Of a stretch of DNA of 64,000 nt, positions 46,630 through 50,580 are shown in pieces. Made by a program: the position numbers and the translations under genes. This DNA comes from a virus (Duplodnaviria; Heunggongvirae; Uroviricota; Caudoviricetes). Location of the stretch: IMG/VR virus record IMGVR_UViG_2519899835_000003. One strand, written 5' to 3'. Each line of letters starts with the position of its first letter. Within the stretch, counting starts at the first letter, position 1. Under the pieces are notes generated by a model. The model ran no database searches, had not been told where the DNA came from, and saw only the letters and a program-made list of their open reading frames with translations.

Positions 46630-46890
46630 AATGACGCCCTCGAGTGGTTTCTTAATAACTCACCACCGACGACGCCAATCGTCTGGTGGTGAACTGTGCA
46701 GGGTTGGCGTAACCGGGAAACCGACCGGCGCGGATCTCTCCGCCCCCACACAGCCCACCATAATTCAGATGTGCGCGTGCATACGACAATAAAAAACACG
46801 CTCGCGGCGTGTATCTGTCGCGGTCTCTATCCAGGACGCCAATCCCGACGCCAGATTTTGCTGGCGCGTGAGGAATATAGCCCCGAATAA
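46630..46890 (-). repeat. Copy 1 of a ~260-bp structured leader upstream of an ORF6N gene
   Basis: Aligns with 48214-48475; shared hairpins with compensatory base changes; hairpin plus T-run at 46789-46812. Confidence 0.6.
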
Positions 46891-47547: not shown

Positions 47548-48213
47548 TCAGAATTCAAATTGTCTTGCCCGCAGGCTTTTCAGCATTGGCATGGCCCGCT
47601 GGATAACGGAACTTGACATGTCGAGACGTGTTACCTCCCTCAGTAGCGCGTCTCTGTTCTTCGTCACCATGTAGATGGTCTCAAACGCAATGTCATACAG
47701 CTTGTTCGTGTATGAGGAGTTCAGCTCTTTCATAATGGGATACAGGTGTTTGCTGATGTCCTGGGCTTTTTCCATCCAGAGCTGCATGTAGCAAAGGAGG
47801 ATGATTTCTTCGGCTGTGAATTGTGGCTGAATCTGCGGCTGCTGTTCGGTTGGTGCTGTTTTTCCCTGGCTGAAATAGCAGTCTTCCAGTTTTTCGAATA
47901 CCTCCCACGCCCGATCGGTTTCGAGCATTTTTGCGTGACGGGCTGCGCCGCGTTCTGTCCAGAGGATGAGGGAGCGGGCATTTTTACCAACTAACCCGAT
48001 TGTTTCGGGTCTGTTCTTAAACTCGCGTAATTCGTTTTTTTCAATTTTAAAGTAATGCTTTCCGGGCATGAATCGCGTCGTGTTGTTCAGAAAGTTATCA
48101 GAAATGTTTTTGATTTTTGTTCCGTAAAGGTGAGCCAACAGTTCAGTAGTAATTACGGGGATCTGGTTATAGGTAACAGGGGAAAGGTTTTCGACAGAAA
48201 TTTGAACAGCCAT
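47548..48213 (-). CDS. ORF6N domain antirepressor paralog with the shared C-terminal domain
   Basis: N-terminus like 45946-46629; C-terminus like the 2929-3558 protein. Confidence 0.75.
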   Translation of the reverse strand: MAVQISVENLSPVTYNQIPVITTELLAHLYGTKIKNISDNFLNNTTRFMPGKHYFKIEKNELREFKNRPETIGLVGKNARSLILWTERGAARHAKMLETDRAWEVFEKLEDCYFSQGKTAPTEQQPQIQPQFTAEEIILLCYMQLWMEKAQDISKHLYPIMKELNSSYTNKLYDIAFETIYMVTKNRDALLREVTRLDMSSSVIQRAMPMLKSLRARQFEF

Positions 48214-48475
48214 AATGACCTCGCGTTTCGATAATTTTTACCTCGCCACCGTCAGGTGCTAATCATCGTGGTGGCGAACTGTGCGGGGTTAGCACTACCG
48301 GTCGAAACATCCGGCGAGCCTTTCGGCTCCCCCACACAGCCCGCCATAAATCGCGAATGTGACTGTGCTTAGCGCATAAAAAAACCGCCAGCGCGGTTAT
48401 GCACCGTTTCGATATCCGGGGTGCTAATCCCGACGCCAGGTTTTGCTGGCGCGTGAGGAATATAGCCCCGAACAC
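48214..48475 (-). repeat. Copy 2 of the structured leader upstream of an ORF6N gene
   Basis: Homologous to 46630-46890; hairpin plus T-run at 48378-48398. Confidence 0.6.
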
Positions 48476-48555
48476 GCGACGTTGTCAAACTGATGGCATT
48501 GCAGATCCCTACGCAATGTAACACTATGTGTTATACATTAATAACGGAACAAAAA

Positions 48556-48926
48556 ATGCGCATTTTTAAAAACGCCTGGTTTGAGCGATTTGCACGCAAA
48601 ACAAAATATCCGACCAATCACTGCGCGAAATTGTTAAACAGGCTGATAACGGGCTTATCTCAGCAAACCTGGGTAACGGCGTTATCAAGCAACGTCTGCC
48701 ACGAGTCGGTGGCGGCAAATCTGGCGGTTATCGCACAATCATTTTCTATCGCGTCGGCACAAGGGCCTTTTTCGTATATGCATACGCAAAAAATGAACGT
48801 GAAAATATAACCGCTACTGCGGAAAGTGCATTTCGGAAGGCGGCTCCTCACGTACTCAATCTAACAGATGAACAACTGGCACAACTGATTCTACAGGGTC
48901 AGTTTACGGAGGTACCCAATGAGTAA
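48556..48926 (+). pseudogene. HigB/Gp49-like RelE-superfamily toxin gene disrupted by a frameshift
   Basis: N-terminus MRIFKNAWFERFARK in one frame; toxin-like C-terminus GGGKSGGYRTIIFYRVGTRAFFVYAYAKNERENIT in another frame with no start codon; shift in an A-tract near 48600. Confidence 0.55.
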
Positions 48927-49236
48927 AAATTACCGCAGTGATGCGCTTGCATCCGTACATGAAATGATGGAATCGCTTCATGATATCGGCGCAGTAACGA
49001 AACAGACTATGCGAGAATTCGATGAAACTTGTCTCCAGCCAGCGCCGGTAATGTCTCCGGAAAGGATCCGTGCACTGCGCGAACGAGAGCATCTGTCTCA
49101 ACCTGTTTTTGCCAGATACCTCAACGTCAGTAAAAACCTGATATCAGACTGGGAACGTGGTGTAAAACGGCCGGGAGGTGCCGCTCTTCGCCTTCTTTCA
49201 GTCGTAGAGAAAAACGGAATCCAGGTAATATCATGA
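48919..49236 (+). CDS. HigA-like XRE-family HTH antitoxin
   Basis: 105 aa; LSQPVFARYLNVSKNLISDWERGVKRPGGAALRLL; start overlaps the toxin stop. Confidence 0.7.
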   Translation: MSKNYRSDALASVHEMMESLHDIGAVTKQTMREFDETCLQPAPVMSPERIRALREREHLSQPVFARYLNVSKNLISDWERGVKRPGGAALRLLSVVEKNGIQVIS

Positions 49237-49286
49237 TACTCCAATACAACAAAACCCGCCGAAGCGGGTTTTCATTAGAAGCACCT

Positions 49287-49781
49287 TTAGTTTTGCTGTT
49301 CTATTTTAAGCTTGATAGTTTCATACAAAACAATAGTTGCGCCTGTTTTACATAATTCCCGGCTGTCATACGCACGAGACCAATAACACAACCAGTTCTC
49401 GAGATCTTCTCGAGTATAGGTTTTGCAGGCCAGTCCCTCTGCCATTTCCACGATTTCATCGCCTGGTGCTGTTAACTCATAGCCATTCAACAACAAGAAG
49501 ACATAACCAGCCATCATAGCTGTTCGTTTGTTTGCATTAGCAAATGGATGATTCTGAATCAGACTTTCAATCAATACTGATGCCAGTACAAACATGTCAT
49601 TAGTCTGTTCATACCATCGAACCATGCTGGGACGAGACTGAGAAGAACTTAAATTATCAACACTCAGCACACTAACAGGTTCATCTGGTGTTTGAAGCTC
49701 AATTAAAAGGCGATTAATTTCGGTAAGATCATCAAACGAAAGGTAGTGCACTCCTTCAACAATCTCAGCCATAGAGCACAA
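49287..49781 (-). CDS. Fic/Doc-family toxin
   Basis: HPFANANKRTA motif; TTG at 49781, ATG at 49772. Confidence 0.8.
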   Translation of the reverse strand: MCSMAEIVEGVHYLSFDDLTEINRLLIELQTPDEPVSVLSVDNLSSSQSRPSMVRWYEQTNDMFVLASVLIESLIQNHPFANANKRTAMMAGYVFLLLNGYELTAPGDEIVEMAEGLACKTYTREDLENWLCYWSRAYDSRELCKTGATIVLYETIKLKIEQQN

Positions 49782-49790
49782 TACCCATCA

Positions 49791-49970
49791 TTACACTTTT
49801 GAAAGTTCTTCCATTGCCTTCTCGTAACGAGAAAAACCGAAATCGAAAGCATTTTTCACCTGCTCACGATGAGTGCAATTTTCATCGATAGCCGGGCGCG
49901 GAGCTGCCACAACGCTTTTATCGCGAGGGGGAATAGTCAATCGCGGGTGTTTTTTTAGTGCGTAGCTCAT
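49791..49970 (-). CDS. Putative cognate antitoxin of the Fic/Doc protein
   Basis: 59-aa ORF ending 6 bp before the toxin start. Confidence 0.45.
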   Translation of the reverse strand: MSYALKKHPRLTIPPRDKSVVAAPRPAIDENCTHREQVKNAFDFGFSRYEKAMEELSKV

Positions 49971-50179
49971 TGGGTGTACCCTTACTTCTCCGTCCTGTTC
50001 TTTAACAAAAATCAAGTCAATACAAAATTAGTCAGGCTAATGTTGTTAGCATAGCCTAATACCAATCGTATTCACAACCACAGTAAGTGAAAAAACCCGC
50101 CGAAGCGGGTTAAGTGCGGGTGCGTTGAGGATGCCTGACACATCAGAGGTGGCGAGGGATTTCTCCCTCGCCGGGTCTC

Positions 50180-50335
50180 TTACTCCTCAGGTTCGTAAGC
50201 TGTGAAGACAGCAACCTCCGTCTGACCGGTTCGGATTCGTACCTCGCATAGGTCTTTCCTCGTTACCAGTGCCGTCACTACGACGGTAATACAGATGACG
50301 ATCAGGGCGACTAACATCGCCTTTTGCTGCTTCAT
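50180..50335 (-). CDS. hok: Hok/Gef-family type I toxin
   Basis: MKQQKAMLVALIVICITVVVTALVTRKDLCEVRIRTGQTEVAVFTAYEPEE, near-identical to HokC/Gef as recalled. Confidence 0.9.
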   Translation of the reverse strand: MKQQKAMLVALIVICITVVVTALVTRKDLCEVRIRTGQTEVAVFTAYEPEE

Positions 50336-50580
50336 AGCCTGCTTCTCCTTGCCTTTCGGCGCGTAAGAGGCTAACCTACATGTGTCTAGCATGAAATTGG
50401 CCTCAGATTAATGTTAGGCGTCTTGCAGGACGCGTAATGTTAACTGGGGTTTTTCTCTGTCTGCCTTACGGTGGCATGCCCGAGGCAGACAGCCTCAAGC
50501 ACCCGCAGCAATTCTACTTAACTCTCGCTTTACCGCAAACCGTTTTTACCCGATATGGGAATTCCCATATCGTAATGAAT

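Follow-up and report, generated by a model that had tools for sequence, protein, structure and literature searches.

A frameshifted HigBA2-type toxin gene beside an intact antitoxin gene in a lambdoid Escherichia coli prophage

Toxins of family PF06296 (formerly DUF1044) are ribosome-dependent mRNases named HigB2 or RelE, and their modules have the T/A gene order (Gerdes 2025, PMC11980606). The closest solved relative of the toxin considered here belongs to the HigB2-HigA2 module of Vibrio cholerae (PDB 5JAA, 5JA8, and 8A0X; Hadzi et al. 2017, PMC5416850; 2024, PMC11006873), in which R51, R64, Y82, and K84 are the active-site residues of the toxin (PMC5416850) and the footprinted operator of the antitoxin is an inverted repeat over the -10 element (PMC11006873). 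Antitoxins also occur without a toxin. Such orphans are abundant in E. coli, where a role in anti-addiction is a routine speculation (PMC10790755), and they have been reported to be abundant in Klebsiella pneumoniae (PMC7192599).

The locus described here lies in a window of 64,000 nucleotides, by which we mean the whole stretch of DNA analyzed. It resembles the V. cholerae module in its toxin-first order, in a predicted RelE-like toxin fold whose best structural match is HigB2, in the four active-site residues, all of which have identical counterparts in the repaired toxin, in an antitoxin of about 105 amino acids (aa) whose C-terminal part carries the helix-turn-helix (HTH), and in a candidate inverted repeat over the -10 region. 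It differs in that the toxin similarity is weak (E 0.005 by phmmer, about 20% identity, TM about 0.51 to 0.61), the N-terminal region of the antitoxin has no detectable similarity to HigA2, and the arms and spacing of the candidate operator are 6+3+6, versus 7+5+7 in V. cholerae. The V. cholerae module is chromosomal, whereas this one sits in a lambdoid prophage with a frameshifted toxin gene.

The HigB-HigA system of plasmid Rts1 (PF05015 and PF09907) shares the inverted, toxin-first order and the RelE/ParE superfamily, but neither of its families was matched by the toxin in a Pfam search at E ≤ 0.01. The original prediction had called the toxin HigB-like, which is therefore correct solely in the HigB2 sense, as supported by PF06296 and the HigB2 structures, and not in the Rts1 sense; its label of HigA-like for the antitoxin was apt, the best solved relative of that protein being V. 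cholerae HigA2. No NCBIfam model matched the toxin, and the antitoxin obtained sub-threshold matches to MqsA, NadS, and DicA-type HTH models, so that a finer family name is unavailable. We consider it very likely that the locus is a HigBA2-type operon in which the toxin gene has become a pseudogene by contraction of an A5 run to A4 and the intact antitoxin has been kept. Gene decay of this sort is commonplace and already well described, and it calls for no new mechanism.

A toxin gene divided between two reading frames

The start of the toxin and the rest of it had been predicted to lie in different frames, with the shift in an A-tract near position 48600, and translation of the frames and alignment of the DNA bore out both points (Table 1). 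From the ATG at 48556, frame 1 reads MRIFKNAWFERFARK and then continues out of frame as TKYPTNHC... to a TAA at 48808 to 48810. Frame 0 reads (A)ICTQNKISDQSLREIV...GKSGGYRTIIFY...QFTEVPNE, beginning NKISDQ and finishing EVPNE before a TAA at 48924 to 48926; this second toxin frame is also readable as NKISDQSLREIV...GKSGGYRTIIFY...QFTEVPNE. The downstream frame does lack a start codon, as had been proposed: after a TGA at 48582 to 48584, ATG, GTG, and TTG are all absent from frame 0, which is why it is missing from the list of open reading frames (ORFs). When the window was aligned at the DNA level with 12 loci, it read CGC-AAAA-C (48595 to 48602), versus CGC-AAAAA-C in HCP4S3_I4 (99.1% identical) and in 2013C-3033. 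The lesion is therefore a 1-nucleotide (nt) deletion, and restoration of the frame would take a -1 shift. The assignment of the frameshift site draws on DNA alignment and on translations of 18 loci.

Table 1. Coordinates of features of the toxin-antitoxin locus in the window
Feature	Coordinates	Strand	Description
Toxin 5' fragment	48556..48600	+	Native frame, codons 1-15, MRIFKNAWFERFARK
Frameshift site	48598..48601	+	A4 run (A5 in intact alleles); 1-nt deletion at codon 16
Out-of-frame tail	48601..48810	+	TKYPTNHC...NVKI, ending at TAA 48808-10; read by ribosomes starting at 48556
Toxin 3' part	48600..48926	+	Ancestral codons 16-123, frame 0, without a canonical start
Second lesion	48819..48821	+	Codon 89 GCG (Ala); GAG (Glu) in intact alleles
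Intact antitoxin, 105 aa	48919..49236	+	Xre-type HTH at residues 45-99
GGAGG Shine-Dalgarno of antitoxin	48908..48912	+	6 nt ahead of the antitoxin ATG
Putative operator/promoter	48519..48537	+	Inverted repeat and extended -10-like element, read by eye
G+C-rich hairpin	49251..49272	.	AAAACCCGC-CGAA-GCGGGTTTT; 15 nt past the antitoxin stop; minus-strand score

With the missing A added back, the toxin is a protein of 123 aa that matches PF06296 (Pfam "RelE", HigB2 type) over positions 1 to 120 of 120 with 154 bits and E 2e-45, against a cut-off of 27 bits, a score that applies to the conceptual repair alone. Because this repaired protein fits the family from end to end, as a high-scoring, full-length member, the reading of the locus as a frameshifted toxin gene is not a matter of chance. 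Homologs of the repaired toxin numbered 1922 at E ≤ 1e-5; those listed are typically 123 to 124 aa long, and in nearly all of the 120 members listed the match spans 98 to 100% of the repaired toxin, N-terminus included. R51, R64, Y82, and K84 of V. cholerae HigB2 pair with R47, R60, Y77, and K79 in the phmmer alignment. An AlphaFold2 model was built for a 98%-identical intact homolog (P0001) from a 39-sequence alignment, with one of the five models confident (pLDDT 86, pTM 0.79), and its top Foldseek matches were the HigB2 chains 5ja8_C and 8a0x_C (probability 1.0, TM 0.51 to 0.61). The model thus has a RelE/BECR fold similar to that of HigB2.

No uninterrupted ORF of the native sequence holds both the KNAWFERFxRK motif and the catalytic body. 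The 1-nt deletion breaks the ORF and so makes the locus a pseudogene of a PF06296 member; the repaired protein belongs to the family, but the coding capacity of the window is split over two frames, and no single product qualifies. The segment cut off by the frameshift is exactly K5 to K15, the KNAWFERFxRK stretch that is invariant in 39 aligned family members. The window allele also carries E89A, at a residue at least 90% conserved across the family. Loss of one A from the A5 run at codon 16 has thus cut the invariant motif at the N-terminus off from the catalytic body, initiation at 48556 would give an 84-aa nonsense peptide stopping at 48810 and no intact toxin, and the window allele has also acquired E89A at this highly conserved position. 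We infer that the toxin is inactive. A tblastn search for toxin and antitoxin paralogs over the whole 64 kb returned this locus alone.

The A-tract might instead recode or vary in phase, so that some ribosomes or cells would produce a working toxin, either through a -1 slip by tRNA-Lys at A_AAA (48603 to 48606) or through A4-to-A5 and A5-to-A4 slippage in replication. The idea is not absurd, because a -1 slip at that tetramer would give a full-length toxin of 123 aa in which N16T, at a variable position, is the sole change; the equivalents of the catalytic residues are all intact downstream, and the combinations of indels among close alleles described below are compatible with recurrent insertions and deletions in the A run. 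Restoration of the toxin by slippage, which the original prediction had allowed for, is in this formal sense possible, but the evidence runs against it, and we judge it improbable. Four or five A residues make too short a run for high-rate phase variation. An X_XXY_YYZ heptamer is absent, the sequence CGC_AAA_ACA_AAA_TAT offering the tetramer A_AAA alone, and a downstream stimulatory structure is likewise absent from the folds of 48607 to 48666, 48607 to 48706, and 48590 to 48690, none of which exceeds shuffled sequences in stability (z = +1.34, +0.64, and -0.01, respectively). On reading the sequence, no Shine-Dalgarno-like element was seen just upstream, and the downstream frame is not kept among carriers, as witnessed by a second frameshift in O104:H4, cM8a, and AST198 and by E89A in the window type. 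Tetramers of the form Z_ZZN shift at about 0.15%, essentially a background rate, when they have no stimulator, and the weakest of the six pseudoknot-responsive motifs is A_AAA (PMC4066793). With neither heptamer nor downstream structure, and with the tetramer rate at background, a programmed frameshift was rejected.

An N-terminally truncated but active toxin could also be produced from a noncanonical start, and RefSeq (PGAP) annotates exactly such a coding sequence (CDS), a RelE/ParE family toxin of 112 aa with an ATT start (48588 to 48926, WP_226867305.1), unflagged as a pseudogene. This we find more improbable still. ATT is a very rare initiator, it has no Shine-Dalgarno sequence ahead of it (AAAAACGCCTGGTTTGAGCG), the product would lose strand 1 together with the KNAWFERFxRK motif, which is invariant, and the match to the repaired toxin takes in the N-terminus in nearly every one of the 120 members listed. 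The loss of the invariant motif and the missing Shine-Dalgarno sequence led us to reject the ATT-start protein as a functional toxin, and the PGAP entry is best read as an annotation artifact.

Recurrent toxin decay among E. coli prophages

A megablast search of 5,426 complete E. coli genomes with positions 48480 to 49260 (781 bp) found the locus in 217 of them, in a chromosomal position every time; among the matches listed, locus length served as a proxy for indel status and was verified on sequenced representatives. The A4 run was read in FORC_069, ML35, TOE17, PS2C, LZHX12, cM8a, and AST198, and also in an assembly of the O104:H4 outbreak clone and in phage PhiR12_3, which was induced from ECOR13 and sequenced independently. 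PhiR12_3 was the sole match in a search of a phage collection; it carries the same lesion, and its 255-bp frame-1 ORF is annotated as hypothetical. FORC_069 matches the window at 100% identity over the query, and among the matches listed at least 5 more assemblies do so across the 781 bp and at least 16 more O104:H4-type records score the same as the sequenced one. Single-base homopolymer errors are common on some platforms, but a sequencing or assembly error in a gene that is really intact is hardly credible here and was rejected, since A4 was sequence-checked in ten independent loci, nine of them in E. coli assemblies and one in the induced phage, many more assemblies agree in length and identity, and the second lesions that accompany it are lineage specific.

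Within the group of alleles at 99% identity or more, the locus is 1 or 2 bases short in 31 of the 32 genomes listed, HCP4S3_I4 being the only intact one. Intact toxin genes of 372 bp were found in L012, L003, L018, L004, and L007, which include near-identical and more distant alleles. Elsewhere the damage has gone further: O104:H4, cM8a, and AST198 combine A4 with a second 1-nt deletion, delC367, the O104:H4 and AST198 alleles also have F12L at an invariant residue, and 23CRST047 has kept A5, yet has both delA349 and delC367. In a separate group of alleles at 84% identity, typical of O157, O145, O26, and O103 prophages, an independent G4-to-G5 insertion shifts the frame in about one-third of an evenly spaced sample. 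The original prediction of a decayed module with an intact antitoxin finds support in these comparative data, in which the toxin is lost progressively and repeatedly and the antitoxin is left untouched.

Recombination between alleles is evident and confounds comparisons of rates, so the following substitution ratios are indicative only: the group of at least 99% identity has 5 nonsynonymous changes, 2 synonymous changes, and 3 indels in the toxin versus 0 nonsynonymous changes, 3 synonymous changes, and no indel in the antitoxin (Fisher one-sided p of about 0.08 on the substitutions, or about 0.035 once indels are counted as damaging, with small counts), and the window and the 84% allele differ at 16 nonsynonymous and 50 synonymous codons in the toxin and at 1 nonsynonymous and 23 synonymous codons in the antitoxin, where 104 of 105 aa are identical.

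All four combinations of the A4/A5 state (48598 to 48601, alignment position 123) and delC367 (at about 48841, alignment position 367) are present in closely related alleles, pointing either to recombination between prophage alleles or to recurrent indels in the A run. L003 and L018 follow the window at about 99% identity across the toxin and the N-terminal third of the antitoxin and then diverge sharply from about window position 49027, through the HTH half of the antitoxin and beyond, a pattern that points to a recombination breakpoint within the antitoxin gene. This breakpoint falls close to where the putative toxin-binding part of the protein gives way to the putative DNA-binding part.

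The antitoxin, its control, and the genomic neighborhood

The overlapping antitoxin gene was rightly predicted to be intact, an ORF of 105 aa that has an 8-nt overlap with the toxin stop. It is intact in every allele sequenced, and the identical protein (WP_000042397.1) is found in genomes with dead toxins and in genomes with intact ones. Its HTH matches PF01381 with 32 bits over residues 50 to 94, and similarity to V. cholerae HigA2 (E 8e-8) extends over residues 45 to 99; for residues 1 to 44, neither Pfam nor the HigA2 search gave a recognized domain or any similarity. The operon would thus be a type II toxin-antitoxin (TA) operon in which a PF06296 toxin gene comes first and an overlapping antitoxin gene with a C-terminal Xre-type HTH comes second. 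The antitoxin is most probably still made; it would be translated from its own GGAGG site, and because that site is strong there would be no further need of translational coupling to the toxin.

Upstream of the toxin, a perfect inverted repeat, TAACAC-TAT-GTGTTA (48519 to 48533), overlaps an extended -10-like element, TGTTATACA (48529 to 48537), and this candidate operator block persists in the 84%-identity alleles despite flanks that cannot be aligned. A sigma-70 scan called no promoter ahead of the toxin on the plus strand, and operator and promoter accordingly stand as candidates. By analogy with V. cholerae HigA2, it is most probable that the antitoxin continues to repress the operon by way of this repeat over the -10 region. 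Downstream of the antitoxin, the hairpin at 49251 to 49272 has A and T runs on its flanks and is likely a bidirectional terminator.

The operon is encoded on the other strand from its nin-region neighbors in a lambdoid prophage, with genes for an ORF6N antirepressor, NinB, and NinE on one side and for a Doc-family toxin, hokD/sok, and replication proteins on the other. It resembles an autonomous cassette, a self-contained opposite-strand insert into the nin region of an E. coli prophage. The cassette neighbors vary between prophages: L015 and L018 (92 to 93% alleles) carry, directly after the antitoxin, an extra gene for a "HigA family addiction module antitoxin" (1071 to 1346), which takes the place of the Doc toxin of the window.

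Two further TA-type modules accompany the operon, so that three lie within 2 kb. An intact Doc/Fic-family toxin gene occupies 49287 to 49781 on the minus strand (TIGR01550, E 1e-35) and is preceded by a small ORF within 49791 to 50015 (-), annotated in RefSeq as a 59-aa hypothetical protein and without a Pfam or NCBIfam match, which is a candidate for an unrecognized Phd-like antitoxin. The hokD type I toxin ORF lies at 50180 to 50504 (-), with a full-length match to the sok antisense RNA (RF01794, 110 bits).

On the other side, a module consisting of C4 antisense RNA, isrK, and an a1b1 target is present in two copies, at 48267 to 48465 (-) and 46682 to 46880 (-), both matching Rfam RF01695, RF01394, and RF03163 above the gathering score. 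Each copy lies upstream of an antirepressor-type gene, the first preceding the ORF6N gene at 47548 to 48213, and together they look like a duplicated, P1 immI-like control unit for antirepressors. A near-consensus minus-strand sigma-70 promoter, TTGACA-18-TATATT (48488 to 48459), is divergent from the promoter region of the TA operon.

Persistence of the antitoxin and annotation of the locus

The locus agrees with described orphan antitoxins and anti-addiction modules in that the antitoxin has been kept after loss of the toxin and is conserved at the protein level. A familiar example of an anti-addiction module is the chromosomal ccd locus, which acts against the ccd system of the F plasmid. 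Unlike that class, no cognate plasmid toxin was found here: PLSDB holds no plasmid toxin more than 60% identical to the repaired one, all plasmid homologs falling below that level, and the plasmid matches are mostly non-enterobacterial. An anti-addiction role for the antitoxin, as the original prediction had raised, therefore stays speculative, and the only plausible targets of the antitoxin are the intact alleles of other lambdoid prophages.

Such prophages do carry intact alleles, at 80 to 99% DNA identity. Related intact alleles are widespread in Shiga toxin-producing E. coli (STEC), with an antitoxin identical at 104 of 105 aa and an intact toxin such as WP_086257797.1 (84% allele), and among the matches listed some genomes hold two copies of the locus; FORC_069 has a single place for it by megablast. 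Selection might thus have maintained the antitoxin after the death of its toxin, either because it neutralizes the intact toxins of related lambdoid prophages or because it regulates other genes, a proposal that we regard as unlikely. If it were true, repeated toxin loss with retention of the antitoxin would be prophage-against-prophage anti-addiction and not neutral decay.

The reading that we prefer, a decayed HigBA2-type module, concerns a locus that is already annotated, if mis-flagged. In O104:H4 (L002, 6178 to 6384), the broken toxin is annotated as a 68-aa protein, WP_228355587.1, which, like WP_226867305.1, is unmarked as a pseudogene in RefSeq; in GE3, the broken toxin is annotated as two separate "toxin" CDSs. 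Because RefSeq presents such fragments as "RelE/ParE family toxin" without a flag, censuses of TA systems count these loci as complete modules.

The significance of the finding is thus little besides annotation hygiene. Recurrent homopolymer frameshifts in the toxin beside an untouched antitoxin, in several prophage lineages, nonetheless make the locus a neat natural example of the "toxin dies first" path to orphan antitoxins, and it could be a test case for the question of whether orphan antitoxins are under selection.
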